Origin: Candidatus Dojkabacteria bacterium
Lineage (GTDB): Bacteria; Patescibacteriota; Dojkabacteria; SC72
DNA: 64,000 nucleotides
Assembly: GCA_028694805.1 (NCBI GenBank)
Contig: JAQVKD010000001.1
Span: forward strand, 25,549-89,548
Direction of reading: 5' to 3'
Shown here: positions 1 to 64,000 of the stretch, in pieces
How positions within the stretch are numbered: the first letter of the stretch is position 1
How the letters are laid out: each line of letters begins with the position of its first letter
Translations under genes and position numbers: made by a program
Notes under the pieces: generated by a model
Told to the model about the DNA's origin: nothing
The model's input: only the letters and a program-made list of their open reading frames with translations
Databases searched by the model: none

Positions 1-5
1 TTGAT

Positions 6-149
6 TCAATTAACTAATGGCATTCCTTTTTCTATAATTTCATTCATCATTTGTGTCATAGATATTGTAGTTTTTCTTTTGGAAATTAATTCTACTTGTT
101 TATCACACAATAATTTATATACTTCTTTAGATACACCAACTGTTGGCAT
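6..149 (-). CDS. small ribbon-helix-helix-like protein (47 aa), not in ORF track
   Basis: Own translation: MPTVGVSKEVYKLLCDKQVELISKRKTTISMTQMMNEIIEKGMPLVN. The beta-strand/helix/helix pattern resembles CopG/Arc RHH proteins. Confidence 0.3.
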   Translation of the reverse strand: MPTVGVSKEVYKLLCDKQVELISKRKTTISMTQMMNEIIEKGMPLVN

Positions 150-267
150 CGTTATTACCTGCTGCAGTCTTTGAAAATTAAAAAGTTTAGTGGTTAATAA
201 ACTTAAAAGTATATAAACTTTTCTCTTTGAATCTAAAAAAGTTTAGAACTAAAAAGATAAGTCATAC

Positions 268-609
268 TTACGCCATATTAAAGAATTGTTGCCTTTTTCT
301 AGCATCTTCCCTGCTCTCCATTCTCTGAGCTTTCATAAGAGGTTGATGTGACTGAGACGAACTTGATTGTATTTTGTGTTTACTAAATTGTATCAATCCT
401 TCTAGCTGTTCTTGGTTTTGTGATAATTGGTTCTGTATAGATTGCATTTTTTCTTCTAACTGAGATATCTTTGGTGTTATATTGTTGGATAATGAAGCTG
501 TTTGACTTTTGTTCTGATACTTATAAAATATATATCCTATAAGCATTAATCCTGCTCCAGCTAGTATGTATTTCATTACCTTATCATAATTTAAACATTC
601 ATCTGGCAT
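268..609 (-). CDS. small membrane protein with N-terminal TM and Q-rich coiled coil
   Basis: TM segment ILAGAGLMLIGYIFY, then heptad-like Q/L repeats. C-terminus RKRQQFFNMA resembles the R-Q-R-x-F/Y-G repeats of the YGMR family. Confidence 0.5.
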   Translation of the reverse strand: MPDECLNYDKVMKYILAGAGLMLIGYIFYKYQNKSQTASLSNNITPKISQLEEKMQSIQNQLSQNQEQLEGLIQFSKHKIQSSSSQSHQPLMKAQRMESREDARKRQQFFNMA

Positions 610-610
610 A

Positions 611-925
611 TTATATCAATCCCTTTTGTTTTGCTATATTTAGAGAATATAAATCTATCCCTTCTACATTTTCTAATGAAAATTGTTGTGATTGTGCAGT
701 AGTTCTTCCTTTGATATATACAAAAAGAATTGCTGCTCCTAATGCTCCTGAGATCGCCCAGAACCACCAATCTTCTTCTTTAAAGAAACCTTTTGGTTCT
801 TCTGGTATTATTCCTAAACGTCTTTCTGTTTCAAGTTTTTTAAGAGCTTCTGACGGAAGAAATCCTTTTTTCTGTAATTCTTCGAATCTTCGTTTCTCTG
901 ATTTTGTAGGATTTTCTAGAACCAT
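611..925 (-). CDS. small TM protein, GIDLxSL C-terminal-motif family (paralog 1 of 3)
   Basis: C-terminus NVEGIDLYSLNIAKQKGLI matches the C-termini of the ORFs at 32640..32846 and 32430..32603. Confidence 0.55.
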   Translation of the reverse strand: MVLENPTKSEKRRFEELQKKGFLPSEALKKLETERRLGIIPEEPKGFFKEEDWWFWAISGALGAAILFVYIKGRTTAQSQQFSLENVEGIDLYSLNIAKQKGLI

Positions 926-928
926 GAT

Positions 929-1648
929 TTACCTCGTTGTTAGCATAACATATTCCTCAAGGTCAGGTCTGTATAATTCTAATTTTGGAATTTTCTTTTC
1001 TGTGAGTTGTTCAGTAGTTAATGATTTTATTGGTTTAAATATATATGATTTATTTGTTTCAACATTATGGTATAGAAAATGATATTTTGGCAGATAATAT
1101 ATTTCATCTGCTGCTGTTCCTACTTGTTGACGAATTTTTATTATGTCAGTCTCTAAGCTGAGTGAAAATATAAGTAAGTGCTCTGATTCAGATATTAGAG
1201 TATTATGAATATCTCTTGGTCTCTGACTTACGTTTATAATTCCAACATTATATGAACGTCCTTGTGTTGCTATTACTTTATGCCAATACTGTATCTTAGA
1301 AGGTGTTGTTATTAAAGCTGCTTCGTCGACATATAATGAGTTATCTTTCGAGTCAAAAATTATTTCACAGATACTATTAAAATCTCTGTCAGTAAGGTCA
1401 TCAGGCTGGTAAAGGATTTTATTGTATTTGGTTATGTTCTTTTTTAGTTCTCTTGGAGTATTTATTACTATATCATGTTCTACATCTGTATTTTCATGTT
1501 TAATATCCCAAAACACATATTTATCATAGTGCGGCAACAACCAATTTTTTGCTAAATGTGTCTTTCCTGAACCAGTTCTTCCAAATATTGCTACACGGTC
1601 ATTTGTTCTTATTCTTAAGTTATCTATTATAGTGAAATCAGTTACCAT
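929..1648 (-). CDS. P-loop ATPase, candidate genome-packaging ATPase (FtsK/HerA or A32-like)
   Basis: Walker A IFGRTGSGKTHLA near the N-terminus, Walker B LYVDEAALI about 85 aa downstream, and a QRPRD motif. The 239-aa size is typical of PRD1/A32-type packaging ATPases. Confidence 0.55.
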   Translation of the reverse strand: MVTDFTIIDNLRIRTNDRVAIFGRTGSGKTHLAKNWLLPHYDKYVFWDIKHENTDVEHDIVINTPRELKKNITKYNKILYQPDDLTDRDFNSICEIIFDSKDNSLYVDEAALITTPSKIQYWHKVIATQGRSYNVGIINVSQRPRDIHNTLISESEHLLIFSLSLETDIIKIRQQVGTAADEIYYLPKYHFLYHNVETNKSYIFKPIKSLTTEQLTEKKIPKLELYRPDLEEYVMLTTR

Positions 1649-1672
1649 TATATCAGCTCTATTGTTTGTGTG

Positions 1673-2923
1673 TTATTGTACTGATAAACTAATAGAAAGT
1701 GTTGGACATCCTGCTGTAACATACTCAAGTGCTCCTATGTCATATGCAGAACCTTGTGGTCGTGTTTTATTATCATAATCAAATCCTGGAACAAATTGAG
1801 TTGATGATCCTGCATTTATTGCAGGAGAGTTAGATTGTAAATGAAAATCTGCAGTTGATGGATTGACAAAGTTTGGATTTGTTCCTATAAGATTGTGATC
1901 CTGGGTTGTATTTCCATTTGGCATTAAGTTCCCTCCACTTCCACTATTATTATAACTAATATTGTTTCTTACTATTATGCCTGTGGCACTTCCATATTCA
2001 ATACGAATGCCACCACCCCAATCAGTGTCCAAACCGCAGTTATATACAGTATTATTAACAACTACAATATCACTTATTGTACCAACTGAATATGATGTTG
2101 ATGCTACAATTCCAGCTGCTCCTGTTTTGTTCAATATATTATTATAAATCTTACAGTGCTGTAAACTTCCTGAAACTTCTACAGCATAAGCAATGCCTCT
2201 GACGCCATATCCTCCTCCAGTAACATAATTATTATAAGTATCAATATATGACATTGATTGACCTTGAGAGTCAATGTATATTCCTGCTGACATGTTTGCA
2301 ACAACAGTATTATGATGTATTGTTCCGTTTCCTCCGCCCTGTTTTACATCAATACTCTCGAAATTATCTGTGTCGTGTATATAGTTATTTTTTATTTCAA
2401 AATTAGATACGTTAATCATATTGACGTTCTCATTTTGCTGGTCATTTCCAGAACCAAATCCTGCTATTTGAGTATTGTAAACATTGTTTCCGTCATATGT
2501 TATATAACTTGAATTTTGAGCATATAATCCACTTCGCTGTATTGCATGAACGGTGCAACCTTTTATAATTACATTATTACATGTATGAACCCATATTCCA
2601 CACCAATATGAATTAACAACATTGAATCCTATAAATTGTATATAACCACAATTAGTTATATATACTCCACCTTCCCACTTAGGAACTTTACTGTTGACAT
2701 CTATAGTAACACTTTCTCCGGTATATGGTTGAAAAGTAATGTATCCAGTAGACGATCCTGATCTTGATATTCTAACTTGTTCATAGTAAGTTCCTCCTCT
2801 AACATAAACTATGTCTCCTGCAGATACTATGTTCGCAGCTCTTTGGATATTTCTCCAAGGTGATGAGGTTGATGTTCCAGAGTTACTGTCGTTTCCTGAT
2901 GTTGATACATAATATGTTGTCAT
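1673..2923 (-). CDS. right-handed parallel beta-helix protein (pectate-lyase fold)
   Basis: N-terminus SGNDSNSGTSTSSPWRNIQRAANIVSAGDIVYVRGGTY is the classic pectin-lyase-fold start. Followed by repeated N-x-[IV]-x-x-N turns. Confidence 0.65.
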   Translation of the reverse strand: MTTYYVSTSGNDSNSGTSTSSPWRNIQRAANIVSAGDIVYVRGGTYYEQVRISRSGSSTGYITFQPYTGESVTIDVNSKVPKWEGGVYITNCGYIQFIGFNVVNSYWCGIWVHTCNNVIIKGCTVHAIQRSGLYAQNSSYITYDGNNVYNTQIAGFGSGNDQQNENVNMINVSNFEIKNNYIHDTDNFESIDVKQGGGNGTIHHNTVVANMSAGIYIDSQGQSMSYIDTYNNYVTGGGYGVRGIAYAVEVSGSLQHCKIYNNILNKTGAAGIVASTSYSVGTISDIVVVNNTVYNCGLDTDWGGGIRIEYGSATGIIVRNNISYNNSGSGGNLMPNGNTTQDHNLIGTNPNFVNPSTADFHLQSNSPAINAGSSTQFVPGFDYDNKTRPQGSAYDIGALEYVTAGCPTLSISLSVQ

Positions 2924-2926: not shown

Positions 2927-3733
2927 TTATTTCCCGAATCTTTCGATTCCAATTTTATACCTTTCACAATTCTTTGATTTTGGAAAAAATCTGCATTTTA
3001 TTCTATCACTACCTAGATGTATTCCAGGTGCATTATGTTTATATATAACTTTTCCATATTTTGATAAACGTTTCCCAAATCCCAGTTCTTCTTCTTGTAC
3101 CATCTGTTTCACATCGGTTTGATTAATAGATGTGTTAAACTGACCAGATAAATAGAAAAGATGTTTATAATATGAACAGTTTCCTCCCATCATTCTTTGT
3201 GGATAAACTATAGTTCTTCCCAATGTAGCACCTAGTATGTATAGTGGTTTTGGAACTCCTGGATAATTGTTATCTATGATACTTCCTGATACTGCAACTG
3301 TATCAGGATTATTAAATGGTTTTAATAAAGTATTTAGCCAGTGATATGGAAACTCTATATCTGCATCTACTGCAACTATTATATTTCCTTTTGAGTAAAG
3401 TGTTCCAATATTTCGTGCTGTCAATTTTCCTTTTGGTGATACTATAATTTTATCTACATAAGAGGTTGCTAATTTTATTGTATTGTCTCGTGATCCATTG
3501 TCAACTAATATATATTCAAAGTACTGTGGATATTGTAAGGCAATTGACTGATTTCTTAAGCTCTTTAAACATCTCTCTATATAAAGTTCTTCGTTCAATG
3601 CAGGAATTATTATACTTACTGTATCAGGTGGACTGGATACAATAGAATCTGTACTTAGCATTTTATATTCCATAACTTTGGACGAAAATAATGCTGATGT
3701 TATAATTCCTGATGTATATTGAATTGCTGACAT
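2927..3733 (-). CDS. family 2 glycosyltransferase (GT-A)
   Basis: SIIIPALNEE...YEYILVDNGSRDNT followed by a VDADIEF DxD motif. Confidence 0.7.
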   Translation of the reverse strand: MSAIQYTSGIITSALFSSKVMEYKMLSTDSIVSSPPDTVSIIIPALNEELYIERCLKSLRNQSIALQYPQYFEYILVDNGSRDNTIKLATSYVDKIIVSPKGKLTARNIGTLYSKGNIIVAVDADIEFPYHWLNTLLKPFNNPDTVAVSGSIIDNNYPGVPKPLYILGATLGRTIVYPQRMMGGNCSYYKHLFYLSGQFNTSINQTDVKQMVQEEELGFGKRLSKYGKVIYKHNAPGIHLGSDRIKCRFFPKSKNCERYKIGIERFGK

Positions 3734-4360: not shown

Positions 4361-4672
4361 TTAATCGTTATTTTTTCCTATACAGTCTAATTTATCTATA
4401 TCTACAGTTTTTAAAAATTTCTTTAGATATTTTCCTTGTGACGGGTCTTGCTTTATTAAAGCACATGTCAGTTCTGCTACATGTTCTTTTTCTTCATTCA
4501 TTACATGTGTAATTATTTTCTTAGATTCTTCATTATCAATGTTTTCAATTTGAGATTGATATAAATTAATTGCATCTAACTCTGCTATTATACCTGATCT
4601 CAGTAATTCTTGATTTGTAAATTTTTGATTGAGTTTATCAGATTTTTCCTTTGTTAAATTTACACATGTCAT
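4361..4672 (-). CDS. ferritin-like/rubrerythrin-like small protein
   Basis: DAINLYQ...EEKEHVAEL carries the E-x2-H di-iron-type motif of ferritin-like four-helix bundles. Confidence 0.4.
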   Translation of the reverse strand: MTCVNLTKEKSDKLNQKFTNQELLRSGIIAELDAINLYQSQIENIDNEESKKIITHVMNEEKEHVAELTCALIKQDPSQGKYLKKFLKTVDIDKLDCIGKNND

Positions 4673-4683: not shown

Positions 4684-4896
4684 CTATTCTTTTCCTTGTA
4701 CGTGATTAAAAATTCTTGCAAATGTATAACCTATGAATGATCCCATTATAGTTCCAAATAATGTTTCACTTAGTTTTCCGGACATTAATGCTGTAGTAAG
4801 TGCTATTATAAATACAGAAATTATCATTCCTTCGTATTTTCCAATATCTTCCATAACACCGTGTTTTTTTGTGTTTGATTCTTCCATATTTACCAT
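4684..4896 (-). CDS. small membrane protein
   Basis: Two hydrophobic helices in 70 aa. Confidence 0.4.
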   Translation of the reverse strand: MVNMEESNTKKHGVMEDIGKYEGMIISVFIIALTTALMSGKLSETLFGTIMGSFIGYTFARIFNHVQGKE

Positions 4897-4929
4897 TTCG
4901 CCCCAATATCATGTAATACATAGATATTT

Positions 4930-5364
4930 TTAGTTCTCTTTTATCTCAGATATTTCATTTTTAAGTATAATTTCTACATCATCTGTTCTAAAAATTCCAT
5001 CAAAAGATGAGTCAAAAAAACTATCAGTTTTTCTATGTGCTTCTACAATAGAATTTATTTCTTCTTCTGAATTTCCATAGAAAGTATGTCTTACTACTGG
5101 ATGCCAATCGTTGTCATAATATTCACAAGTTGTTATTTTTAATTTTAAAGGTGGTTTTGTTACAATATTATTCATTCCTCCTGTTTTATTATATTGATTT
5201 TGTTGTCTGTAGTATAAACTCAATGTTTGTTGACGTTTTTTAATTATGTCATTATAAACATATAATCCAGCTATTGTTCCTATTATTATAACTGCAAGTG
5301 AACCTAATAAGAACTTAAAATCTCTTGTTGAAAGATTTTCTGATTGAGATTGAGATAATGGCAT
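4930..5364 (-). CDS. hypothetical membrane-anchored protein
   Basis: N-terminal TM FLLGSLAVIIIGTIAGLYVY. Confidence 0.45.
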   Translation of the reverse strand: MPLSQSQSENLSTRDFKFLLGSLAVIIIGTIAGLYVYNDIIKKRQQTLSLYYRQQNQYNKTGGMNNIVTKPPLKLKITTCEYYDNDWHPVVRHTFYGNSEEEINSIVEAHRKTDSFFDSSFDGIFRTDDVEIILKNEISEIKEN

Positions 5365-5381
5365 GATTGTTATTTTATTTC

Positions 5382-5672
5382 CTAACCATTTTTAATTACT
5401 TGATGTATATAACTTAGTTGTTTGTCAGATAAAGGATTCCATCTATTTAGTAGACTATCTGTATATTCACTTGATAAAACTCCAGATTTTTCTCTGTATT
5501 CTGTAACTGCTGCAGCAGCAGTTTTTGGTATTAAATATTTTTGAACTATGTACAAGGTTGTTATACTGGAGAACATACTCATAAGACTTCCAAGAATGAT
5601 ATTTCTTGTATCTCTGGCAAGAAGTTCTCTCTCTTTCTTTTCTTCTGCTTCTGTCATTCCTTTCTCAGCCAT
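5382..5672 (-). CDS. small TM protein, WxPLSxxEL-motif family
   Basis: C-terminus LLNRWNPLSDKQLSYIHQVIKNG. Confidence 0.5.
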   Translation of the reverse strand: MAEKGMTEAEEKKERELLARDTRNIILGSLMSMFSSITTLYIVQKYLIPKTAAAAVTEYREKSGVLSSEYTDSLLNRWNPLSDKQLSYIHQVIKNG

Positions 5673-5692
5673 AGTTACTCCTTGGGAATTTA

Positions 5693-6109
5693 TTATCTCA
5701 TTCCAAATAAATCTCTTGTTGTTCTCCTTATGTCAAGTAATGATGGAATTGCTGGTTGTGTATGTGATAGAGTTTTTAGTGATACTGTTTGTCTATCCTG
5801 CTGATTCTGATGAGAAGTCTGAATATTTTGATTTATTTGTGTTGATTTTACAAGACTATCAACTTTATTCTCAAGTTGTGATAGTTTTTGTTGTATTGTC
5901 TGAAGCTCTGTAGACGATTGCGATTGAAGTTGTTGATGATATAAATATTGTGGTGGGATTTCATCAACCATAAATCCATAACGTCTTCGTGCATCATATT
6001 GTGGTTCTATTGTGCTTTTGAAAATTAAGTAACCAAAGAAAATTATAGCTCCTAATCCAAATCCACATATAATTAGTTTTGTTATTTCATCTCTAGTGTC
6101 ATCTGCCAT
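5693..6109 (-). CDS. TM plus coiled-coil protein ending in GMR (YGMR-family-related)
   Basis: C-terminus RDLFGMR. Q-rich coiled coil and N-terminal TM. Confidence 0.5.
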   Translation of the reverse strand: MADDTRDEITKLIICGFGLGAIIFFGYLIFKSTIEPQYDARRRYGFMVDEIPPQYLYHQQLQSQSSTELQTIQQKLSQLENKVDSLVKSTQINQNIQTSHQNQQDRQTVSLKTLSHTQPAIPSLLDIRRTTRDLFGMR

Positions 6110-6149
6110 GATTATTGTTTAAACCTCCTCATGTTTTTAGTTATTATAA

Positions 6150-6320
6150 TTACTGTATCATTGCTTTTATGTTCTGTAATTCATCATTTGAAAGTGGTTT
6201 CCATTTACTCAGTAAAGTGTTGGTCTCTAGATATTCCTTAGATTCTTCATCACTTGCTCTTAAAGTTTCAAATAGTGTATGAAAGAGCATATACTCAATT
6301 GATAACATCAGTAATGACAT
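6150..6320 (-). CDS. small protein with KWKPLSNDELQNIK tail (56 aa), not in ORF track
   Basis: Own translation ends ...LLSKWKPLSNDELQNIKAMIQ. No clear SD, so the start is uncertain. Confidence 0.35.
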   Translation of the reverse strand: MSLLMLSIEYMLFHTLFETLRASDEESKEYLETNTLLSKWKPLSNDELQNIKAMIQ

Positions 6321-6342
6321 AATAGATCATTTAATGAATAAT

Positions 6343-6789
6343 TTATTTTTCACTCACAAATTCAAATGACTTATAAGTTGTGATATTTCTTATTTTGTTT
6401 ATTTCTTGTTCTGATAGTGGTTTCCATGTTGATATATCAATATTATATGTCGAATCCATTTTGTTTATTGAATCTAATTTCTCTGGTTTCTTTCCATTAC
6501 CCCCCATCATATACGGAGCAACATTTGGATTACATCTGAGCTTAAGATAGTATGCTGCATATAATGCTACTCCTGTTGCTACTGCTGCTATTGCTGCAGA
6601 TTTTCCCTTTTCATGATATACAAGATAGACTCCTGCACCAGTTGCTATAGCAGTTGCCAATCCAAGATCCATTGCAAGCTTAGCATTTTTATATTTAGGT
6701 TCATCATCTACGAATGTACTTGCTGTGAATAAAGATGAATTCCATGCACTCCATGCTCCAAATACTGCTGATGATGTTAGAACTGCCAA
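6343..6789 (-). CDS. TM protein, WKPLSxxEIN-motif family
   Basis: C-terminus ISTWKPLSEQEINKIRNITTYKSFEFVSEK. Ala/Gly-rich TM helices. Confidence 0.5.
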   Translation of the reverse strand: MAVLTSSAVFGAWSAWNSSLFTASTFVDDEPKYKNAKLAMDLGLATAIATGAGVYLVYHEKGKSAAIAAVATGVALYAAYYLKLRCNPNVAPYMMGGNGKKPEKLDSINKMDSTYNIDISTWKPLSEQEINKIRNITTYKSFEFVSEK

Positions 6790-6872
6790 ACCTAAATCTT
6801 GCTTTGTTTCTACAATAGTAATTCCTCCTTATTATTTTTTATTGATTTTTATCTATTATGATGATACATATA

Positions 6873-7253
6873 TTAGTTATTTTTAGATATAAATATTGAT
6901 GCTAACTTTTCAAGATACCACCTTGCAGTAAGCCCAGATACTATTGAAAGAACTGCTGCTCCTTCTAATCCCAGTCCTGTTTGATTTATTGCTGTCCATA
7001 CAACTGCTATTCCTGCAAGAAGTCCTGCTATTAGAGGCTGTCTCACATGTTCAAATTCATATACATTTTGTAACTCTTCATCTGTTACATCTGGGTTCTT
7101 TTCTTTCTCTTTCTTTCTTAGTGATTCATCTGCCATCTGATCTGCCCACCATGATGCTATTGTAGATAATATCGGTGATAAAATATACGATAAATAAAGA
7201 TATGTATCTGGTCCAATTAACAATTCTAATGTTATTCTTCCTGGTTCTATCAT
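6873..7253 (-). CDS. small polytopic membrane protein
   Basis: Three predicted TM helices. Confidence 0.45.
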   Translation of the reverse strand: MIEPGRITLELLIGPDTYLYLSYILSPILSTIASWWADQMADESLRKKEKEKNPDVTDEELQNVYEFEHVRQPLIAGLLAGIAVVWTAINQTGLGLEGAAVLSIVSGLTARWYLEKLASIFISKNN

Positions 7254-7292
7254 GTTATACTACCTCCTTTATATTGTTTATATCTCATACAC

Positions 7293-7985
7293 TTATTTAG
7301 CTTTAGATATTATTTGTTTTATTTTATTAATCTCATTAATCGAAAGCGGAGTCCATTCTAAATAAGTGTTTTTATTATTTGACGATTCACCTTTAATGTT
7401 ACTCAAGTTCCTTGAATTTAAATAGAATTTTCTTATTATATTTTGTCTTTCTAATTCTTCTTGTCTCTTTAGTTCCAGTTCTTCTTGTCTCTTTAGTTCC
7501 AGTTCTTCTTGTCTCTTTAGTTCCAGTTCTTCTTGTCTCTTTAGTTCCAGTTCTTCCTGTCTTTTTATTTCCATTTCCAGATATCTTTGTCTTCTTTTAA
7601 ATCTTCTCTTTCTATAGTATTCCATTTCTGAATAATCATCATACATTGATGAATTGTATACTGATAAAGGAGCTGAACTAGAACCTCCTGTTAGAATACT
7701 TGGTAGATTTATGTCTAATTGTCGTCCTTGCGGATAGTTTGTTAAGTCTATTGTTGTAGTTCCTGTTCCTCCGTTAGCTGTTATTTGTATAGAATCACCA
7801 TCTGTATATCCACTTGGAAAATTTGCACAATCTAGTGTATATGTTGAATCTGATTCTGATGTAACTGTTATCTGTTCAGATGTTGATAGATTTGTTGCTG
7901 TTACTGTAACTCCTGCTGAGCTTGCAATATTTATAGTTCCGTATATTGGATATGGAACATATGGAAACGGCACGTTATTATCCAC
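7293..7985 (-). CDS. protein with ELELKRQE x5 tandem coiled-coil repeat and WTPLSINEINKI tail
   Basis: Perfect 24-nt tandem repeat in the DNA. C-terminus LEWTPLSINEINKIKQIISKAK. Confidence 0.55.
   Translation of the reverse strand: MDNNVPFPYVPYPIYGTINIASSAGVTVTATNLSTSEQITVTSESDSTYTLDCANFPSGYTDGDSIQITANGGTGTTTIDLTNYPQGRQLDINLPSILTGGSSSAPLSVYNSSMYDDYSEMEYYRKRRFKRRQRYLEMEIKRQEELELKRQEELELKRQEELELKRQEELELKRQEELERQNIIRKFYLNSRNLSNIKGESSNNKNTYLEWTPLSINEINKIKQIISKAK
7455..7574 (-). repeat. 24-bp tandem repeat x5 (4 perfect plus 1 degenerate), in-frame coding repeat
   Basis: Unit ttcttcttgtctctttagttccag. Confidence 0.9.
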
Positions 7986-11571: not shown

Positions 11572-13662
11572 TCACAAAGGAACATGTCTTGTAAATGTCT
11601 TTATTATCGGTACTACTGTAATTATACTCGATGAAAAATCTACTGCATTTCCATTACCAGTAGGTAATGTTGCAGGATTAGCGTACTTAGCTCCGAATCC
11701 TACTCCTGTTGTCCAGGGATAGACTGATATAAACGGAGAAGCTACATGACCTACAGCTATATCTCTATTAGATAGAGAAAATGATATACCAAGTCCAGTA
11801 CTCGCAGGTAGTGTAGCAGGATCAGCATACTTAACACCAAATCCTACGCCATTGGTCCACGGATATACTGTTACAAACGGTGAATTGACATGACCTACAG
11901 CTATATCATTACCTGAATGTGAAAATATTGTCTCTACACTAATACCTGTAGGTAATGTTGCAGGATCAGCATACTTAACACCAAAACCAACTCCCGTGGT
12001 CCAGGGATATACTTGAATAAAGGGCGAGTTGTTACTAGCTACTGCTATGTCATTACCAGATGGTGAGAAATCTACTTCAAATCCTGTACTTGCAGGTAAT
12101 GTGGCTGGATTAGCATACTTTGCTCCAAATCCTACACCATTAGTCCAAGGATATGCACTTATAAATGGACTTGTTGTATGTGCTACAGCTATGTCATTAC
12201 CAGAAGGTAAAAAAGACACACCATTTCCTTGTCCTGTAGGTAATGTAGCAGGATTAGCATACTTAACTCCAAATCCTACACCATTAGTCCAGGGATAAAC
12301 TGATATAAATGGAGAACCCGCATGAGTTACAGCTATATCACTTCCTGATGGAGAAAATGTTACTCCGTTACCAGTACTTGCTGGTAATGTAGCAGGATTA
12401 GCATACTTAACGCCAAATCCAACTCCTGTTGTCCAGGGATAGGCTGTAACGAAAGGAGAACCTACATGACATATAGCTATATCACCGCCTGATGGAGAAA
12501 ACGATATGCCATTTCCTATTCCTGCAGGTAACGTAGTCGGATTGGCATACTTAGCTCCGAATCCAACTCCTGTAGTCCAGGGGTATGCTGTTATAAATGG
12601 CGAGTTATTATGTGCTACAGCTATATCTGTCAGCACAACTACCTTATTTAAATCTGATGACATATCTACACCAAGTCCATTACCTGCTGGTAATGTACTT
12701 GGATTAGAATATTTAGCACCAAATCCTACTCCTGATGTCCAAGGATATACATTGACAGCAGGAGGACTATTATATGATACAGCTATATCAGTTCCTGTAT
12801 GTGTGAATGATACTCCAGTTCCAGAAGCAGTGGGTAATGTAGCAGGATTAGCATACTTTGCTCCAAATCCTACACCTGATGTCCAGGGATAAACTGATAT
12901 AAATGGAGAACTGTTATGTGTTATAGCAATATCATTTCCTGATGGCGGAAATGAAATTCTGTGTCCATTTCCAGGAGGTAATGTAGCAGGATCAGCGTAT
13001 TTTGCTCCAAATCCTACACCTGATGTCCAGGGATAAACTGATATAAATGGTGATATTCCATGTCCAACAGCAATGTCATTTCCTGATGGAGAGAATGTTA
13101 CTCCGAAACCAGCTCCTGCAGGTAAAGTAGCAGGATCAGCATATTTTGTTCCGAAACCAACTCCTGACGTCCAGGGGTATGCTGTTACGAAAGGAGAATT
13201 TAAGTGTGATAATGCAATATCTGTTCCAGACGGGTTAAAATCTATTCCAAATCCAGTACCTGTAGGTAGTATACCAGGATTAGGATACTTTGCTCCAAAA
13301 CCTGCTCCAGATTTCCACGGATAAACTGAGATAAATGGTGAGTTAGCATGTCCTAATGCTATATCATTTCCAGACGGTGAAAATTTTACATCGAATCCAT
13401 CACCTGCAGGTAATGTTACAGGATTAGAATACTTAACTCCAAATCCTACTCCTGTATTCCAAGGATATACACTGATAAATGGAGAAGTTACATGAGATAC
13501 AGCAATGTCTGCTCCTGATGTTGAAAACATGACACTTTCACCAATACCAGTAGGTAGTGTAGCAGGATTGGTATACTTAGGTCCAAATCCTGTTCCTATT
13601 CCCCATGAATAAGCTGTGACAAACGGTGATGTGTCGTGTACTACAGCAATATCTACTGTCAT
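11572..13662 (-). CDS. repeat protein with about 16 copies of a 42-aa unit (likely two 8-blade beta-propellers); no signal peptide
   Basis: Unit DIAVxHxxSPFISVYPWTxGVGFGAKYANPATLPxGxGxGVxFSPSGN repeated across the whole ORF. Confidence 0.65.
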   Translation of the reverse strand: MTVDIAVVHDTSPFVTAYSWGIGTGFGPKYTNPATLPTGIGESVMFSTSGADIAVSHVTSPFISVYPWNTGVGFGVKYSNPVTLPAGDGFDVKFSPSGNDIALGHANSPFISVYPWKSGAGFGAKYPNPGILPTGTGFGIDFNPSGTDIALSHLNSPFVTAYPWTSGVGFGTKYADPATLPAGAGFGVTFSPSGNDIAVGHGISPFISVYPWTSGVGFGAKYADPATLPPGNGHRISFPPSGNDIAITHNSSPFISVYPWTSGVGFGAKYANPATLPTASGTGVSFTHTGTDIAVSYNSPPAVNVYPWTSGVGFGAKYSNPSTLPAGNGLGVDMSSDLNKVVVLTDIAVAHNNSPFITAYPWTTGVGFGAKYANPTTLPAGIGNGISFSPSGGDIAICHVGSPFVTAYPWTTGVGFGVKYANPATLPASTGNGVTFSPSGSDIAVTHAGSPFISVYPWTNGVGFGVKYANPATLPTGQGNGVSFLPSGNDIAVAHTTSPFISAYPWTNGVGFGAKYANPATLPASTGFEVDFSPSGNDIAVASNNSPFIQVYPWTTGVGFGVKYADPATLPTGISVETIFSHSGNDIAVGHVNSPFVTVYPWTNGVGFGVKYADPATLPASTGLGISFSLSNRDIAVGHVASPFISVYPWTTGVGFGAKYANPATLPTGNGNAVDFSSSIITVVPIIKTFTRHVPL

Positions 13663-22094: not shown

Positions 22095-22142
22095 TTACTT
22101 TCTACCTACTTTTATTAATTTTATTTATTTATAGTTCTTATA

Positions 22143-24549: not shown

Positions 24550-24648
24550 ATACTTAATCCTCCATTAATAACTTGCTATGTTCTATATGTTCACCACGCA
24601 GTAAATCATTCTATATTTTACTTTTCTTTCTTTTCCTCTTTTTCCCTT

Positions 24649-39221: not shown

Positions 39222-39224
39222 CAA

Positions 39225-39415: not shown

Positions 39416-39417
39416 TG

Positions 39418-39516: not shown

Positions 39517-39615
39517 ATCATTCCTCCTACATTGTTTATATTTGATTTATTTAAATCAATATTATTTATCTTTCAGAAAGGTCGTTTTTATCAATATAGT
39601 ATCACTGGAGAATTG

Positions 39616-53115: not shown

Positions 53116-54915
53116 TCATTTTTGAGAATCTATTCTCTTCAGCTCATCACACATCTGAGTACATGCTGTTTTCAAATCTACCCCGTCAAACGGAGTTACA
53201 GCCGCAACCACTCCAATGCTTCCTATTGATACTACACGATACTTTTTATTACTTGGTGGAGATTGAGTTACAGTTATCGTGAATATATTACTTGTGATTG
53301 ATTTGTCTAGGTTCGAGCATGTAATATTCGCAGTTCCCACGCCATTTCCAGTAACTACTCCATTAGTAACCGATGCTATGTTAGTATTATCACTGTTCCA
53401 TGCTAATGAAGGACATTTCATCACAACATCATTTGTGTTTTTACATGTAGGTGTAAGGGTAATCGTATTTCCAATCACTACTGATCCCTCACTTGGAATT
53501 GATATTGACTTCAGGACTGGTGGTAGTGGAGCTGCTGTTACTGTTACAGAACATATATTACTTGTGATTATATTACTTGAGTTCGAACATGTTATATTAG
53601 CAATTCCTTCAGTATTCCCAGTGACAACACCATTTAAAACCGATGCTATACTTGTATTATCACTTTTCCATGTCAATGAAGGACAATTCATTATACTATT
53701 ATTGCTATCTTTACATGTTGCTGTTAAGTTAACAGTTAATCCTGCTTGAACATTTGCACTGGAAGGTATTGTTATTGATGATAACACTGGAGCTGGATTA
53801 TCTCCAACTGCGTTTACTGCATCTATTCTTCCATATCCATAGAAAACATCTCTTCCTGTCTGTCCAAGATCTATTGAAGTAGTACTTAATATTGTCTTTA
53901 CATCGTTAGGACTTAGTGTTGGATTGGCTTTTAGCATCAAAGCAACCATTCCTGACACATGAGGTGTTGCCATTGATGTTCCATTTAGAGTATTATATCC
54001 TGACGGATTACATAATGGACACGTTCCCTTTGGAACAGTTGACAAAACATTGGAACCTGGAGCAGCTACCCACAACTCTTGACCTGTACTTGAAAACGAA
54101 CTTCTATTATCGTTTACATCTGTAGATGCAACTGCTATTACACTGTCATATTTGGCTGGATATCCGATAGTATTCTGAGTTCCGTTTCCATCAGAATTTC
54201 CTGCTGCAGCTACTAATACTATTCCCGCATTCTTAGCAGCATCACATATATCTTTAAGAGCTTGACTGTAAGTTCCACCACCAAAGCTCATGCTTATGAT
54301 TTGAGCGTTGTTATCTATAGCCCACTGTATTCCTGCTACAATCCAGTCATAACTTCCTGAACCATTATTATCAAGAACTTTTCCTATTATTAAATCTGCT
54401 TCAGGAGCTACACCAATAACTCCCACAGAATTGTCTTCTGCTGCTATAGTTCCCGCAACATGTGTTCCATGCCCATATCCATCGAATGGATTGTTTGATC
54501 CATCTACAAAATTACGTCCAAATTTGTAATTGTTTTTCAAGTCTTCATGGTTGTAATCTATTCCAGTGTCTAGAATACACACCTTTATTCCAGATCCTTT
54601 ATTTCCATTTTCCTGGACTTGGAGTGCTCGAATCTTACTTATTCCCCACGGAATCGTCTGAGATGATGGAGATACTGAAAGAGTCATGTCACTTTCAAAC
54701 CCCAACACATGAACATCATCTGGTGTTGTGACCTCTACATATTCCATTTGAGAATTTTTCTTTAATTGCTCGATTTTATTTTTATCTACTACGATGGTCA
54801 ATGCATCAATAGATTCATGCACCATCACAATAGATGCACCTACATCACCAACTATGTTTTCACATACAGCCATTCCACTTTTACATTTTACAATTGCTTT
54901 TACTGTTTCTGCCAT
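53116..54915 (-). CDS. subtilisin-like serine protease (S8) with two C-terminal Big_2-like domains
   Basis: Catalytic triad contexts VCILDTGID, HGTHVAGTIAA, GTSMATPHVSG. Two 80-aa repeats IxIPSxxxVxxGxTxxLTxTCKxxNxxxMxCPSLxW. Confidence 0.85.
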   Translation of the reverse strand: MAETVKAIVKCKSGMAVCENIVGDVGASIVMVHESIDALTIVVDKNKIEQLKKNSQMEYVEVTTPDDVHVLGFESDMTLSVSPSSQTIPWGISKIRALQVQENGNKGSGIKVCILDTGIDYNHEDLKNNYKFGRNFVDGSNNPFDGYGHGTHVAGTIAAEDNSVGVIGVAPEADLIIGKVLDNNGSGSYDWIVAGIQWAIDNNAQIISMSFGGGTYSQALKDICDAAKNAGIVLVAAAGNSDGNGTQNTIGYPAKYDSVIAVASTDVNDNRSSFSSTGQELWVAAPGSNVLSTVPKGTCPLCNPSGYNTLNGTSMATPHVSGMVALMLKANPTLSPNDVKTILSTTSIDLGQTGRDVFYGYGRIDAVNAVGDNPAPVLSSITIPSSANVQAGLTVNLTATCKDSNNSIMNCPSLTWKSDNTSIASVLNGVVTGNTEGIANITCSNSSNIITSNICSVTVTAAPLPPVLKSISIPSEGSVVIGNTITLTPTCKNTNDVVMKCPSLAWNSDNTNIASVTNGVVTGNGVGTANITCSNLDKSITSNIFTITVTQSPPSNKKYRVVSIGSIGVVAAVTPFDGVDLKTACTQMCDELKRIDSQK

Positions 54916-54933: not shown

Positions 54934-55193
54934 TTAATTAGACCTTGATGAACTTCCGCCCTTTCTTCCTATTCTTTGATAGAATTCTCTTCCATACCTT
55001 ATTTTAGTTACTTCACCACCTTTATGTCCATTAATAGACAGCTTTTCATGTAGTTCATCAGAAATTCCATACTTTCGAAGATTCTTAGCACGTGTATTTC
55101 CTCCTTTTTTTCCTATCTCTCTAAAGAATTCACTATCGTGCGTATCTCTTGTTTTTTCTCCGCCTTTTTTCCTGCTTCTTGTACTGTTATCAT
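54934..55193 (-). pseudogene. GsiB/KGG-repeat stress-protein homolog interrupted by a -1 frameshift at an A6 run (A_AAA_AAG)
   Basis: 0-frame gives MITVQEAGKKAEKKQEIRTIVNSLER*. The -1 frame continues KKGGEKTRDTHDSEFFREIGKKGGNTRAKN...GHKGGEVT...GRKGGSSSRSN, which is the HDxEF..EIGxKGG repeat of GsiB. Confidence 0.55.
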
Positions 55194-62232: not shown

Positions 62233-62802
62233 TTATTGTGATGTTTGATGTCTTTTTTTCTGTTGTTCGTATATATTATTAGCCTCATTTTCAGGATTAA
62301 AAGCATCAATGAATTCGTCTGTATTTAAATTTGGTCTTTTGCATAGCAAATCGCTACACATTATTTCCATCAAACTCATTTTTATGTCATACTTCTCGTA
62401 TAATATGTTTGATGTCACTTTAAGCTTTTTATGAACCTTGTCAGGAATTTCCATTACATGTTGTCCACTTCCAGGAAATAAATCACGCTTATTAATTTTA
62501 GGTTTTATATCCTTTATGAGAATCTTTTCAAGCAACCTTGCATCAAAATCATTTTCTGTTAAGTATATACAAATAAACTTAATCTGATACTTATCGTCAA
62601 AGTTTTTGTGATGATGATATAATCTACTTCTGATTGATTTTGCTGAACCAACATACTTTTCTTCGGAAGAAAATGTTATTACATATGCACCACAGCTAAT
62701 AGGTGTTAAATATATGTCTTCTGGTGATATATTATCTATTACAGATTTAATGTTAATATCACAATTAATATGTGTTTTTAGTTCATTGCTTTCCATAATC
62801 AC
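62233..62802 (-). CDS. GIY-YIG nuclease-domain protein
   Basis: GAYVITFSSEEKYVGSAKSIRSRLYHHH is a GIY...YIG...R...H core. Confidence 0.65.
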   Translation of the reverse strand: MIMESNELKTHINCDINIKSVIDNISPEDIYLTPISCGAYVITFSSEEKYVGSAKSIRSRLYHHHKNFDDKYQIKFICIYLTENDFDARLLEKILIKDIKPKINKRDLFPGSGQHVMEIPDKVHKKLKVTSNILYEKYDIKMSLMEIMCSDLLCKRPNLNTDEFIDAFNPENEANNIYEQQKKRHQTSQ

Positions 62803-63350
62803 TCACTCAAAACTAACTCCTTTTTTTTATCTTTCTCCTCTTTTTCTGCTTTTATAGAATCACTTAACCACTCTGTTATATTTTCTTGTTCTTTAGCTTT
62901 TTCGATAAAAATCTTTACTATGTTACCAATAGTAACACGTATATCATATTCTGAATATAATGATGCCTGTATTTTCTTAATTTCATCATATAAATCCTTC
63001 GATATTTTTACAACTTCACTTTCTTGTACAGGAAACAAATCACGCTTATTAACTTCAGGTTTTATGTCTTTTATAAGAATCTTCTCAAGTATTCTTGAAT
63101 CAAACACATCTTCTACTAAGTATACACGAATTAATTTAATTTGATACTCTCCATTGAAACTTTCACGATGATAATTCAATCTAGTTCTTAAAGTCTTTGT
63201 TGAACCGACATATTTCCTACCACATAAAAATGTTATTATATATACACCACATTCATCAGGCAACATATCTATATCTTCTAGTGGTATGTTATCTATCACC
63301 GATGTAACACTAATATCGTAATTAATATGTGTTTTTGATTCGTTATTCAT
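62799..63350 (-). CDS. GIY-YIG nuclease-domain protein (tandem paralog)
   Basis: GVYIITFLCGRKYVGSTKTLRTRLNYHRE. 4-nt overlap with the downstream paralog. Confidence 0.65.
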   Translation of the reverse strand: MNNESKTHINYDISVTSVIDNIPLEDIDMLPDECGVYIITFLCGRKYVGSTKTLRTRLNYHRESFNGEYQIKLIRVYLVEDVFDSRILEKILIKDIKPEVNKRDLFPVQESEVVKISKDLYDEIKKIQASLYSEYDIRVTIGNIVKIFIEKAKEQENITEWLSDSIKAEKEEKDKKKELVLSE

Positions 63351-63367
63351 CTTATATCACACCTTCT

Positions 63368-63658
63368 CTAATTTGAAACAATTTTTCTTGACTCTAAATC
63401 TTCAGCATAGCACTGAACTATAGCATTTTTATGCTTCTTTAAACCAAAAGATTCAAGCATTCTGTTTAGGAGTGATTCATTCTCAATTATGTTTGTATCA
63501 TACATCTTCTTTATTATCACTATTCCATTTCCTATATATTCCACTTTCACAACATCACCAACACTTAGACCTGCTTTTTTTGAAGATATGTTTACATATA
63601 TACTATCATCGTCTTTCTTCTTTTGCTGAATTATTCGTGTGTCTGTTATTGATGTCAT
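63368..63658 (-). CDS. AbrB/MazE/SpoVT-type swapped-hairpin DNA-binding protein
   Basis: VNISSKKAGLSVGDVVKVEYIGNGIVIIKK. Confidence 0.5.
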   Translation of the reverse strand: MTSITDTRIIQQKKKDDDSIYVNISSKKAGLSVGDVVKVEYIGNGIVIIKKMYDTNIIENESLLNRMLESFGLKKHKNAIVQCYAEDLESRKIVSN

Positions 63659-63686
63659 GTTAACCTTTTTCGATTTTAATAAAGGG

Positions 63687-63729
63687 TCTTTGAGGGTACT
63701 ATACTCTAAAAGGTCTCAAAGATATATAA
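63687..63729 (-). promoter_or_regulatory. 8-bp inverted repeat (tctttgag...ctcaaaga) plus TTATATAT box upstream of the AbrB-like gene
   Basis: Seen in sequence. The spacing to the start codon is compatible with an archaeal TATA or bacterial -10/-35 plus operator. Confidence 0.25.
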
Positions 63730-63781
63730 GTCTTTTGGTATACCCAAAAAGTCTAAAATATTTAAAAAGGTAGATAAAAAT

Positions 63782-63943
63782 CTACTCTTCTTCACCTCTT
63801 TCATACTTATTCACATCTCTCTTTCCCTTATAAAATTTGTTCCCTACTCTTAAATCCTTTGTTTTTATGAAATAACCGCACTTATGACATTTTAATCCGC
63901 CATCACCAGCATATAAAACAACTCTACATCTAGGACATCTCAT
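63782..63943 (-). CDS. small Zn-ribbon protein (53 aa), not in ORF track
   Basis: MRCPRCRVVLYAGDGGLKCHKCGYFIKTKDL... has CPRC-x14-CHKC. Confidence 0.4.
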   Translation of the reverse strand: MRCPRCRVVLYAGDGGLKCHKCGYFIKTKDLRVGNKFYKGKRDVNKYERGEEE

Positions 63944-64000
63944 ATTCAAATCTCTTTTATTTTGTTCATCATAATCAATTTACTGCTAACCTGTTATTCT

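Follow-up and report, generated by a model that had tools for sequence, protein, structure and literature searches.

Mini-Borgs are linear, low-GC, unidirectionally coded and virus-like extrachromosomal elements that are kin of the giant Borgs, and the host named in the literature is Methanoperedens archaea (bioRxiv 10.64898/2026.05.22.727314). Methanoperedens are methane-oxidising archaea, and mini-Borgs have been linked to such hosts. Mini-Borgs were first described in bioRxiv 10.1101/2023.08.02.551345, and gene tables for the Ceres clade were provided by Shi et al. (bioRxiv 10.64898/2026.05.22.727314). The capsid-like proteins of Borgs and mini-Borgs are HCIV-1-like and extremely highly expressed, and packaging ATPases are known in some mini-Borgs. 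The family subfam6077 is a near-universal mini-Borg marker (Table S6, bioRxiv 10.64898/2026.05.22.727314), and subfam7475 is a marker present in all Borgs and mini-Borgs. Borgs share with the stretch of DNA analysed here (64,000 nucleotides, the window) a low GC content, one coding strand per replichore, tandem repeats, and a syntenic, highly expressed cluster in which an HCIV-1 VP7-like jelly-roll protein is followed by a caspase-like protein (PMC12660748). Borgs, which range from 285 kb to 1.1 Mb, also have metabolic and ribosomal genes, with many more of host-like type, and the window has none of these; conversely, a packaging ATPase is clear in the window and not generally identifiable in Borgs.

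The window is very probably about half, the middle part, of a Ceres-clade mini-Borg. This assignment, of high confidence, comes from the order of the genes, their Pfam and fold labels, the provenance of the sample and the size of the parent contig, and not from sequence alignment. When compared by labels and positions, around 20 landmark genes are collinear with the published Ceres_115kb mini-Borg table. The shared order is KGG, S8 with Big_2 and HL_N-beta, GT1, HCIV-1-like protein, PEGA, two JAB, the subfam7475 position, PKD, Big_2/lectin, Ser protease, two GH18, PEGA, propeller, EncFtn, GT2, beta-helix and B204-like ATPase (Table 1). Ceres mini-Borgs also resemble the window in their GC content (32-33%), unidirectional coding, genic tandem repeats with units divisible by three, HCIV-1-like capsid-like protein, caspase-like marker protease, GT1 marker and B204-like ATPase. 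No gene in the Ceres_115kb table carries the same label as the D5_N/DUF5906 helicase or the two extra capsid paralogs of the window, and no contradictory feature was found in the comparison with Ceres-clade mini-Borgs, which was made by gene tables and not by sequence identity. The exact window sequence is present in landfill run SRR22315504, which is in the list of Borg- or mini-Borg-positive runs of Shi et al. (bioRxiv 10.64898/2026.05.22.727314). The parent contig measures 128,474 bp, 59 bp away from Ceres_128kb_32_28_near_complete (128,415 bp, 31.74% GC; Table S3). This kind of element has thus already been published, and this very element has probably been described too. Two relatives, on contigs of 173 and 179 kb that the same landfill project deposited as viral scaffolds, agree with the window in gene order. 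The MAG labels of related contigs are Dojkabacteria, Pacearchaeota and Micrarchaeota, and not Methanoperedens.

Table 1. Features located in the window, in order of position
Feature	Position	Strand	Basis
Unidirectional gene array; probable middle of the large replichore in a mini-Borg-type linear element	1..64000	-	ORF strands, GC skew, no tRNA/Rfam
Genome-packaging ATPase, FtsK/HerA (A32 / PRD1 P9 / STIV B204) type	929..1648	-	phrog_2666 E 9e-34
Right-handed beta-helix protein, pectate-lyase-like	1673..2923	-	Pfam Beta_helix E 1.8e-19; position of Ceres gene 133
Family-2 glycosyltransferase	2927..3733	-	Pfam Glycos_transf_2 E 4e-27; position of Ceres gene 132
Encapsulated-ferritin-like protein	4361..4672	-	Pfam EncFtn-like E 2e-11; position of Ceres gene 130
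Run of small membrane proteins	4684..7985	-	Hydrophobic 19-mers, motif counts; orthologs in L002, L004
1190-aa surface or fibre protein, laminin-G/ConA-like lectin domain and beta-helix	7978..11550	-	Pfam Laminin_G_3, Beta_helix
696-aa propeller-like protein of ~48-aa repeats	11572..13662	-	144-bp tandem periodicity
276-aa conserved protein	13988..14818	-	56% identity to L004, 49% to L002
1101-aa fibre or spike protein, NTF(V/I)G-type repeats	15043..18348	-	PHROGs tail spike E 8e-46, virion structural protein E 7e-36
405-aa PEGA-domain protein	18650..19867	-	Pfam PEGA E 1.8e-9; position of Ceres gene 116
Two GH18 glycoside hydrolases	21003..23540	-	Pfam Glyco_hydro_18 E 9e-41, 3e-38; positions of Ceres genes 113-114
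Cluster of cysteine-rich, C-terminally anchored surface proteins	23563..32355	-	Cys-stalk motif, C-terminal hydrophobic segments
Trypsin-like protease	25174-26298	-	phrog_20754 protease E 5e-33
Big_2/lectin-repeat protein	26339-28183	-	Pfam Big_2
PKD protein	28203-28880	-	Pfam PKD
Clan-CD (caspase/gingipain/CHAT-like) cysteine protease	34257..34997	-	Caspase-like fold, invariant His/Cys pair
Two paralogous JAB/MPN-type metalloprotease-like proteins, HxH-x7-S-xx-D motif	35017..36105	-	Pfam Prok-JAB; positions of Ceres genes 93-94
Small PEGA-domain protein	36798..37097	-	Pfam PEGA E 6e-10; position of Ceres gene 90
13-bp hairpin then T run, terminator-like, directly after the capsid-like gene	37285..37317	-	Sequence
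Capsid-like protein (204 aa), sphaerolipovirus-type single-jelly-roll fold	37336..37950	-	Fold comparison
347-aa protein, N-terminal Gly-rich hydrophobic segment, C-terminal ER(E/Q)R(K/R)(Y/F)G.M repeats	38012..39055	-	Motif counts
Four tiny ORFs (23-37 aa), very basic Cys-containing peptides	39056..39615	-	Read from sequence
Conserved 122-aa capsid-module protein	39616..39984	-	51% identity to L008, 40% to L007
Family-1 glycosyltransferase	41105..42487	-	Pfam Glycos_transf_1, Glyco_trans_1_4; Ceres gene 83
Two extra capsid-like paralogs (186 and 214 aa), 84-aa gene between	42530..43976	-	41-43% identity
D5-like superfamily-3 helicase	49038..50453	-	Pfam D5_N, DUF5906; phrog_864 E 2.5e-74
S8 subtilase, two Big_2 domains	53116..54915	-	Pfam Peptidase_S8 E 7e-70, Big_2, HL_N-beta
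KGG-repeat (stress-protein-like) gene	54934..55193	-	Position of Ceres gene 70
Two tandem GIY-YIG nuclease-domain proteins	62233..63350	-	Pfam GIY-YIG E 1.3e-5, 1.2e-6

The window has a GC content of 33.2% and is 93.5% coding. In a greedy non-overlapping ORF set, the minus strand holds 86 of the 93 ORFs (58,542 bases) and the plus strand only seven short ones (1,491 bases), and among stop-to-stop open frames, 33 on the minus strand and one on the plus strand reach 200 aa or more. Of 32 intervals of 2 kb, 30 have a negative GC skew, and the cumulative skew declines almost continuously. An earlier note, made from the letters alone, had described genes of a single orientation, which is borne out by these counts. 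Both ends of the element lie beyond the window, as would any inverted terminal repeats or small second replichore. The in-frame tandem repeats found within genes have units of 15, 21, 24, 42, 105 and 108 bp and fit the mini-Borg description; they are fewer and less perfect than "pervasive" implies, and none of note is intergenic. A strongly hydrophobic segment is present in 25 of 84 proteins.

The capsid-like gene is the best-conserved gene of the element. It is adjoined every time by the gene for the 347-aa protein, as is seen from synteny in three loci of relatives (L006, L007 and L008). The 347-aa protein, which has a paralog at 33105-33737, is probably Ceres gene 88 (subfam6838, conserved in all Borgs). 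Most of the tiny basic ORFs are preceded by a recognisable Shine-Dalgarno sequence, and similar basic Cys-containing ORFs are found upstream of the capsid module in L007; the tiny peptides of the window are candidate DNA-condensing proteins. The extra capsid-like paralogs lie in a lower-GC stretch (GC 0.28-0.30) and have no separate orthologs in the examined stretch of the 179-kb relative, where only one jelly-roll gene is present; an architecture with two capsid proteins is therefore not established. Both JAB proteins match Prok-JAB just under the curated cut-off (E 2e-5 and 4e-4), and the caspase-like protease is the probable equivalent of subfam7475.

The packaging ATPase contains a Walker A motif (GRTGSGKT, residues 23-30) and a Walker B motif (YVDE, 106-109). 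Its top PDB sequence match is STIV B204, over the full length (E 2.6e-4), and it lies at the position of Ceres_115kb gene 134, which is labelled 4kft B204. A tblastn search against phages gave 116 records, in which every taxon named was a tectivirus, an autolykivirus or a Haloarcula sphaerolipovirus, suggesting that its kin among isolated viruses are only membrane-containing tailless viruses. In both relatives (L002 and L004), the GT2 gene is directly upstream of the ATPase gene, whereas the beta-helix gene intervenes in the window and in Ceres_115kb. Tectiviridae, Autolykiviridae and Turriviridae (PRD1, Vibrio autolykiviruses and STIV) have a packaging ATPase homologous to that of the window (27-36% identity by tblastn, and the B204 match); in contrast, they have a double-jelly-roll capsid protein, of which none was found in the window, and genomes of 10-18 kb. 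The genomes of Sphaerolipoviridae, Simuloviridae and Matsushitaviridae (HCIV-1, SH1, SNJ1 and P23-77) are ~16-31 kb (~30 kb in Sphaerolipoviridae), far smaller than the element of the window, which is at least 128 kb. No sequence similarity was detectable between the capsid-like protein and these three families. In addition, the capsid-like and ATPase genes of the window are 36 kb apart, and no small and large capsid genes are seen side by side.

Between these two genes, multiple surface proteins are encoded. Several of the small membrane proteins share a terminal W[KNT]PLS..(I/L) peptide. The 1190-aa protein has 82 N-x-S/T sequons versus 37 expected (z = 10), and this enrichment in the largest surface protein fits an archaeal host. 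The 696-aa protein has a 67% identical ortholog in L004 and lies at the position of Ceres gene 122, a "highly repetitive propeller". The 276-aa protein and the 405-aa PEGA protein are paralogs with a common core domain in alignment, and the 276-aa protein has no profile similarity to the capsid family. The hydrophobic C-terminal segment of each GH18 enzyme may be a membrane anchor, and the cysteine-rich cluster lies at the positions of Ceres genes 107-110.

Read as a mini-Borg, the window starts from the end of a replication/early region (GIY-YIG and D5-like helicase), continues with a conserved capsid module and finishes at the packaging ATPase. In the module are the small basic peptides, the 347-aa membrane/repeat protein, the single-jelly-roll capsid-like protein, PEGA, the two JAB proteins and the caspase-like protease. 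The interval up to the ATPase is filled by many surface proteins, membrane-anchored and probably glycosylated, together with fibres, glycosidases and proteases. In the most likely mechanism, the element would replicate from its ends, and this would account for a single coding strand and a GC skew of one sign. The B204/P9-type ATPase would then pump DNA into an icosahedral internal-membrane shell of jelly-roll proteins, as in sphaerolipoviruses, and the fibres, lectins and GH18 enzymes would serve to bind the host envelope and to penetrate it. A mini-Borg need not be a virus: in a tentative alternative, it would be a linear extrachromosomal element of plasmid-like type that has no infectious extracellular cycle and uses the jelly-roll protein and ATPase, for example, for a protective shell, a vesicle or a transfer apparatus. 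Neither Borgs nor mini-Borgs have been seen to form virions, and their status as viruses has been left open by the authors.

It is unlikely that the window belongs to a separate, so far undescribed family of large tailless viruses, with DPANN archaea or CPR bacteria as hosts, that is merely mini-Borg-like. In favour of such a family, the parent contig sits in a Dojkabacteria bin, the only two matches among GTDB species-representative genomes come from short contigs of MAGs labelled Pacearchaeota and Micrarchaeota, and Borgs or mini-Borgs occur in ~32% of samples without detectable Methanoperedens (bioRxiv 10.64898/2026.05.22.727314). However, a short contig of low GC can easily end up by mistake in a DPANN or CPR bin that is also low in GC, and the placement of the parent contig in a Candidatus Dojkabacteria MAG in GenBank is probably a binning error. 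Moreover, the collinearity with a curated Ceres mini-Borg is too detailed for convergence, the source run is on the positive list, and one mini-Borg is known to be integrated in a Methanoperedens chromosome (bioRxiv 10.64898/2026.05.22.727314).

A chromosomal region or integrated provirus of a Candidatus Dojkabacteria bacterium, as the GenBank annotation of identical proteins would have it, is very improbable. tRNA/tmRNA, Rfam (gathering score), Pfam and PHROGs searches found no tRNA, tmRNA, rRNA or housekeeping genes within the 64 kb, as the earlier note had claimed. Its proposed check of the flanks was also run, and housekeeping genes are absent both from those of the window (L001; 2.9 kb past the window) and from those of two relatives (L002, L004 and L008; three 20-kb stretches). 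Matches to sigma-70-type promoters are not enriched (33 observed versus 35.2 expected), no integrase was found, and the whole parent contig matches a near-complete mini-Borg in size. A tailed phage (Caudoviricetes) with hallmark genes diverged past recognition has a negligible probability: one fibre protein matches PHROG "tail spike" families and phrog_2666 carries the annotation "terminase large subunit", but the ATPase belongs to the FtsK/HerA B204/P9 type, a jelly-roll fold is seen in the best-conserved structural protein, and no terminase, portal, HK97 capsid, tail tube, sheath or tape-measure protein was found in seven Pfam and three PHROGs scans of all ORFs of at least 80 aa except the 82-aa ORF 56564-56812. 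The jelly-roll protein and PRD1/STIV-type ATPase stand in for the terminase, portal and HK97 capsid, none of which the earlier note could recognise either when it judged the window not to be an obvious tailed phage.

The reading given in that note, a large virus, provirus or other mobile element of an AT-rich prokaryote, possibly an archaeon, is supported. Most of the gene content that it named was recovered, including the packaging-type P-loop ATPase, two GIY-YIG proteins, giant fibre-like proteins (1190, 1101 and 696 aa), GT2 and GT1 glycosyltransferases, proteases (S8 subtilase, trypsin-like, two JAB and caspase-like) and several paralog families within the window. For the D5/P4-like primase-helicase, the helicase part stood and no primase domain was detected; the helicase has a 69% identical ortholog in L008. 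Among the regulators, AbrB/MazE and wHTH were matched in Pfam, only under the curated threshold. By its Pfam label and position, the GT1 protein appears to be the equivalent of subfam6077. The subtilase has a trio of Pfam labels identical to that of Ceres gene 71. The KGG gene is readable only via a -1 shift at A AAA AAG, and the joined product scores 35.7 bits against PF10685 (cut-off 20.4).

The window belongs to an already described class of elements, the mini-Borgs, and adds no new kind of element. Mini-Borgs, linear virus-like extrachromosomal relatives of the giant Borgs, were described in 2023 (bioRxiv 10.1101/2023.08.02.551345), and their capsid-like proteins in 2024-25 (PMC12660748). 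In May 2026, a preprint on 323 mini-Borgs, with municipal landfill among the sources, described the Ceres clade, whose genomes range from 115 to >326 kb (bioRxiv 10.64898/2026.05.22.727314), and this 128-kb genome is probably included in it. What supports the mini-Borg identification is the order of the genes, the folds, where the sample came from and how long the contig is, rather than direct sequence alignment.

Gene order was compared with the gene table of Ceres_115kb, a published Ceres-clade mini-Borg. Its genes include KGG repeat (70), subtilase with Big_2 and HL_N-beta (71), GT1 (83), subfam6838 (88), an HCIV-1 (6h9c) match (89), PEGA (90), JAB (93-94), subfam7475 (95), PKD (107), Big_2/lectin (108), serine protease (109), GH18 twice (113-114), PEGA (116), a repetitive propeller (122), EncFtn (130), GT2 (132), beta-helix (133) and an STIV2 B204 NTPase (134) (bioRxiv 10.64898/2026.05.22.727314). 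About 20 landmarks of the window are collinear with genes 70-134, running from 55.2 kb down to 0.9 kb, and the conserved gene order of the Ceres clade is present. The earlier note had taken the array for a large virus, provirus or other mobile element; it described a real feature and read it correctly. Near-universal single-copy markers of mini-Borgs are subfam7475 (caspase-like), subfam6077 (GT1), subfam5340 and subfam3144 (bioRxiv 10.64898/2026.05.22.727314). At the places expected for subfam7475 and subfam6077, the window has candidate counterparts by fold, label and position: a protein of caspase fold, in which a His/Cys pair is invariant, and a GT1. For subfam5340 and subfam3144 there is no annotation with which a gene could be matched.

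The sample and the contig size point in the same direction. Runs SRR22315504, 06, 08 and 09 are among the samples with detectable Borgs or mini-Borgs in Table S2 of the preprint, and the source run SRR22315504 is listed as Methanoperedens-containing and Borg/mini-Borg-positive (bioRxiv 10.64898/2026.05.22.727314). The whole parent contig measures 128,474 bp, and Ceres_128kb_32_28_near_complete 128,415 bp (Table S3, bioRxiv 10.64898/2026.05.22.727314), a difference of 59 bp. The element is probably the published Ceres_128kb itself.

The KGG-repeat gene, which is stress-protein-like, was read from the sequence ahead of the Ceres table, in which gene 70 then proved to be at the exact position; in Ceres_115kb, as in the window, it is directly upstream of the subtilase. 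The start codon and the repeats are in different frames, and a -1 shift on A AAA AAG (55165-55171) joins them into a product that exceeds the Pfam KGG threshold. The frameshift site of E. coli dnaX has the same heptamer. The frame break could mean that the shift is programmed, that the assembly has a homopolymer error or that the gene is a pseudogene.

The coding layout and composition are also those of a mini-Borg. These elements are linear, have 32-36% GC, are attributed to Methanoperedens and carry one coding strand per replichore; their genomes end in inverted terminal repeats, and the window itself includes no end. In the window (64,000 bases, zero N), coding sequence makes up 93.5%, and in a greedy non-overlapping ORF set the minus strand holds 86 of the 93 ORFs (58,542 bases, 97.5% of coding bases), in agreement with the minus-strand-only array of about 85 genes described from the sequence alone. 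The plus strand holds seven short ORFs (1,491 bases). Of the open frames that reach 200 aa or more, 33 are on the minus strand and one is on the plus strand. Nearly all coding here is on one strand, as in a mini-Borg replichore. The GC content is 33.2%, within the mini-Borg range and near the 31.7-32.8% of Ceres genomes in Table S3 (bioRxiv 10.64898/2026.05.22.727314). GC skew, for which a continuity check had been proposed, is below zero in 30 of 32 windows of 2 kb, and the cumulative skew declines almost without break. A skew of one sign and coding on one strand would fit replication that starts at a terminus, which has been proposed for mini-Borgs.

Mini-Borgs are rich in tandem repeats, and their genic repeat units are divisible by three. 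Genic arrays in the window have units of 15, 21, 24, 42, 105 and 108 bp (80-96% matched), all divisible by three; Borgs and mini-Borgs have been described as having amino-acid tandem repeats of this kind. However, the repeats here are imperfect and few, with no intergenic ones of note, whereas those of mini-Borgs are described as pervasive and perfect. The in-frame repeats encode, for example, ELELKRQE and PCPNTCNEPTPTPT units. Three non-coding gaps of 490-612 bp, far longer than elsewhere, flank the replication genes and have no Rfam match; they may contain an origin, a promoter or an ncRNA. Sigma-70 promoter matches are not enriched in the window; archaeal TATA-like boxes were spotted by eye in a few intergenic regions. 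GC skew is strongest in a stretch of lower GC (0.28-0.31, except one 2-kb window at 0.33) that contains the two extra capsid paralogs and may have arisen by duplication or insertion in this lineage.

Features of the window, with positions in window coordinates and the source or detail reported for each
Feature	Position	Source or detail
P-loop ATPase	929-1648	Pfam/PHROGs
1190-aa protein	7978-11550 (-)	
Capsid-like protein	37336-37950 (-)	204 aa
347-aa protein	38012-39055 (-)	
Four tiny ORFs	39056-39615 (-)	23-37 aa
Capsid-like paralogs	42530-43090, 43332-43976	41-43% identical
Low-GC stretch	40001-52000	
Helicase, D5_N + DUF5906	49038-50453	Pfam/PHROGs
Long non-coding gaps	48548-49037, 51512-52123, 61676-62232	
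KGG-repeat gene	54934-55193 (-)	in apparently intergenic stretch 54916-55228
Two secreted proteins	56027-56548, 58179-59804	
559-aa protein	59996-61675	
Proteins with shared C-terminal peptides	268-7985, 28867-29271, 32430-33737, 38012-39055 (-)	
In-frame genic tandem repeat	7455-7577	24 bp x5
In-frame genic tandem repeat	23711-23928	105 bp x2
In-frame genic tandem repeat	31653-31864	108 bp x2
In-frame genic tandem repeat	59264-59373	21 bp x5
In-frame genic tandem repeat	60336-60556	42 bp x5.3
Glycosyltransferases GT2 and GT1		Pfam/PHROGs
S8 subtilase with Big_2 domains		Pfam/PHROGs
GH18 hydrolases (2)		Pfam/PHROGs
GIY-YIG proteins (2)		Pfam/PHROGs
JAB-like proteins (2)		Pfam/PHROGs
PEGA proteins (2)		Pfam/PHROGs
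EncFtn-like protein		Pfam/PHROGs
Giant proteins with beta-helix and laminin-G		Pfam/PHROGs
1101-aa protein		matches phage tail-spike and virion-structural families

The Pfam and PHROGs scans took in all ORFs of at least 80 aa except the 82-aa ORF 56564-56812. The GIY-YIG nucleases, glycosyltransferases, proteases and giant fibre-like proteins named in the earlier note were all recovered. Of its D5/P4-like primase-helicase, the helicase stands, and no primase domain was detected in that protein; for the regulators that it had listed, all matches were sub-threshold. Ribosomal, tRNA and metabolic genes, said to be absent, were likewise not found: ARAGORN gave zero tRNA or tmRNA, Rfam no family at gathering score in the 64 kb, and the Pfam/PHROGs scans no such gene. 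The capsid-like proteins, the 347-aa protein and most small proteins have no Pfam/PHROGs match. When 24 kb were compared by megablast with 50,697 phage records, nothing matched, and Foldseek against BFVD gave weak, unspecific matches alone (TM <= 0.42).

The packaging-type P-loop ATPase recognized from the sequence is confirmed. The 239-aa protein matches phrog_2666 (E 9e-34), and its best match among solved structures, with a full-length alignment, is B204, the genome-packaging NTPase of STIV. In a tblastn search of 50,697 phage and archaeal-virus records, 116 matches were obtained. The taxa named in the output are all membrane-containing tailless viruses, namely PRD1-type and Gram-positive tectiviruses, Vibrio autolykiviruses and eight Haloarcula sphaerolipoviruses, and the matched features, where annotated, are mostly 'DNA packaging ATPase'. 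Walker A (G23-T30) and Walker B (D108, E109) are invariant in 19 homologs. The element thus has the FtsK/HerA-type (A32-like) genome-packaging ATPase of sphaerolipovirus-like viruses. Packaging ATPases are identifiable in some mini-Borgs only (PMC12660748). Scans of IMG/VR and of GTDB genomes with the ATPase alignment returned nothing.

The 204-aa capsid-like protein has no Pfam or PHROG match, and a tblastn search of phages was empty even with the cut-off relaxed to E <= 1. It is the best-conserved gene of the element, with 170 homologs; the 120 matches listed are 48-73% identical to it, and none of these carries a protein name. Its fold is the single jelly roll of the HCIV-1/P23-77 type, as in sphaerolipovirus-like viruses. 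Three jelly-roll paralogs are present in the window versus one in the fetched stretch of a 179-kb relative, in which the two extra paralogs have no separate orthologs. Ahead of the capsid-like gene there is always the 347-aa protein, which has a hydrophobic segment at its N-terminus and repeats at its C-terminus; this holds for distant 3-kb contigs too. A 13-bp hairpin and a T run follow the capsid-like gene. With the capsid alignment, IMG/VR gave nothing, and GTDB genomes gave two short DPANN-binned contigs alone; in one (L006, JAVHOF010000057.1) a run of N breaks the capsid gene, and in the other (L007, CAZFUA010000087.1) a frameshift splits it. Just upstream of the capsid module, the four tiny ORFs, most with a recognizable Shine-Dalgarno, encode extremely basic Cys-containing peptides, e.g. 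MAKKGAECVRYKRVRGVGRRCADF..., which may be candidate DNA-condensing proteins. Comparable ORFs occur at the equivalent place in L007. Between a 276/405-aa family and the capsid family, profile-profile comparison gave no sign of a relation, and hence there is no candidate for a penton.

The window combines the two virion hallmarks of the PRD1/sphaerolipovirus type, a packaging ATPase of the B204/P9 type and paralogous jelly-roll capsid proteins, with a full host-recognition block. It is a compact case, on one mini-Borg, that bears on whether Borg-family elements are viruses. This possibility has already been raised, undemonstrated, in the literature, and the status of Borgs and mini-Borgs was left undecided by the authors (PMC12660748). 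Taken together, the capsid module, the ATPase, 25 hydrophobic-segment proteins (of 84), the families of small membrane proteins sharing C-terminal peptides and the cysteine-rich surface proteins with hydrophobic C-termini would suggest an icosahedral particle with an internal membrane. The ATPase would fill the particle, as in sphaerolipoviruses and PRD1, and roles in recognizing and entering the host would fall to the fibres, lectin repeats, GH18 enzymes and proteases. On the other hand, sphaerolipovirus-like viruses (Helvetiavirae / Singelaviria) have genomes of ~16-31 kb, whereas the parent contig is 128 kb and relatives are 173-179 kb. Their capsomers are formed by two different jelly-roll capsid proteins; the window has three paralogs, and the fetched stretch of the 179-kb relative has one. 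We regard it as a real possibility, falling a little short of an even chance, that Ceres-type mini-Borgs are virion-forming viruses of the sphaerolipovirus lineage with genomes grown to 115-330 kb. If so, no other tailless prokaryotic virus would come near them in size, and Borgs would have grown out of them.

The host labels of the related contigs have also been considered. Methanoperedens as the host of this element would have indirect support from the listing of the source run, and the MAG labels point elsewhere. MAGs labelled Candidatus Dojkabacteria, Pacearchaeota and Micrarchaeota hold mini-Borg-type contigs, the latter two being GTDB species representatives, and the simplest account of these labels is that low-GC contigs were wrongly binned. 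The labels keep some weight because Borg-family elements were found in ~32% of samples without detectable Methanoperedens (bioRxiv 10.64898/2026.05.22.727314). Given the related contigs in DPANN/CPR bins and the detections in Methanoperedens-free samples, some Ceres-type members may infect non-Methanoperedens hosts. An undescribed giant sphaerolipovirus-like virus of DPANN archaea was dropped as a reading in light of the Borg literature. A Dojkabacteria provirus was also dropped. Window proteins are 100% identical to GenBank PHP08_00190, _00395 and _00425, on the 128,474-bp contig of the MAG labelled Candidatus Dojkabacteria. The ribosomal, tRNA and metabolic genes of a Dojkabacteria chromosome are found neither in the 64 kb, nor in the 2.9 kb beyond, nor in the relatives' flanks. 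A tailed phage of the Caudoviricetes is the weakest reading, as the scanned ORFs (at least 80 aa, except the 82-aa ORF) include no portal, large terminase, HK97-fold capsid or tail protein, in line with the earlier failure to recognize the first three. The probable contamination of one GenBank MAG and two GTDB representative DPANN MAGs by mini-Borg-type contigs could mislead studies of hosts and gene content.

A Logan contig from run SRR22315504 (L001) agrees base for base with the final 3,489 bases of the window and runs 2.9 kb past it with more same-strand genes, a D12 methylase among them; flanking housekeeping genes, which were to be looked for, were absent from this 2.9 kb. The methylase, a D12-class N6-adenine DNA methyltransferase (L001 1215-2108, equivalent to ~64.8-65.7 kb), is located upstream of the window, matching the position of Ceres_115kb gene 57, a D12 methylase. 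Relatives on contigs of 173,215 and 179,432 bp (JBINOE, JBINNZ), deposited as viral scaffolds in a landfill study, share the order D5 helicase to ATPase at 30-70% protein identity, and no housekeeping genes occur in their examined stretches.

Short C-terminal peptides are common to unrelated small membrane proteins: W[KNT]PLS..(I/L) in five proteins, [EQ]GIDL..L....KG(F/I/L)I in three, and (Y/F)G.M(R) in four, with six copies in the 347-aa protein. Judged from sequence, they look like a common set of docking motifs. The tiny basic Cys-rich peptides, the shared C-terminal peptides and the extra capsid paralogs provide handles for work on particle assembly.

In the 1190-aa protein, N-x-S/T sequons number 82 versus 37 expected (z = 10), an excess that would fit archaeal N-glycosylation. 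The 559-aa protein has 0 versus 15 expected, and a milder enrichment is observed in the two other secreted proteins.
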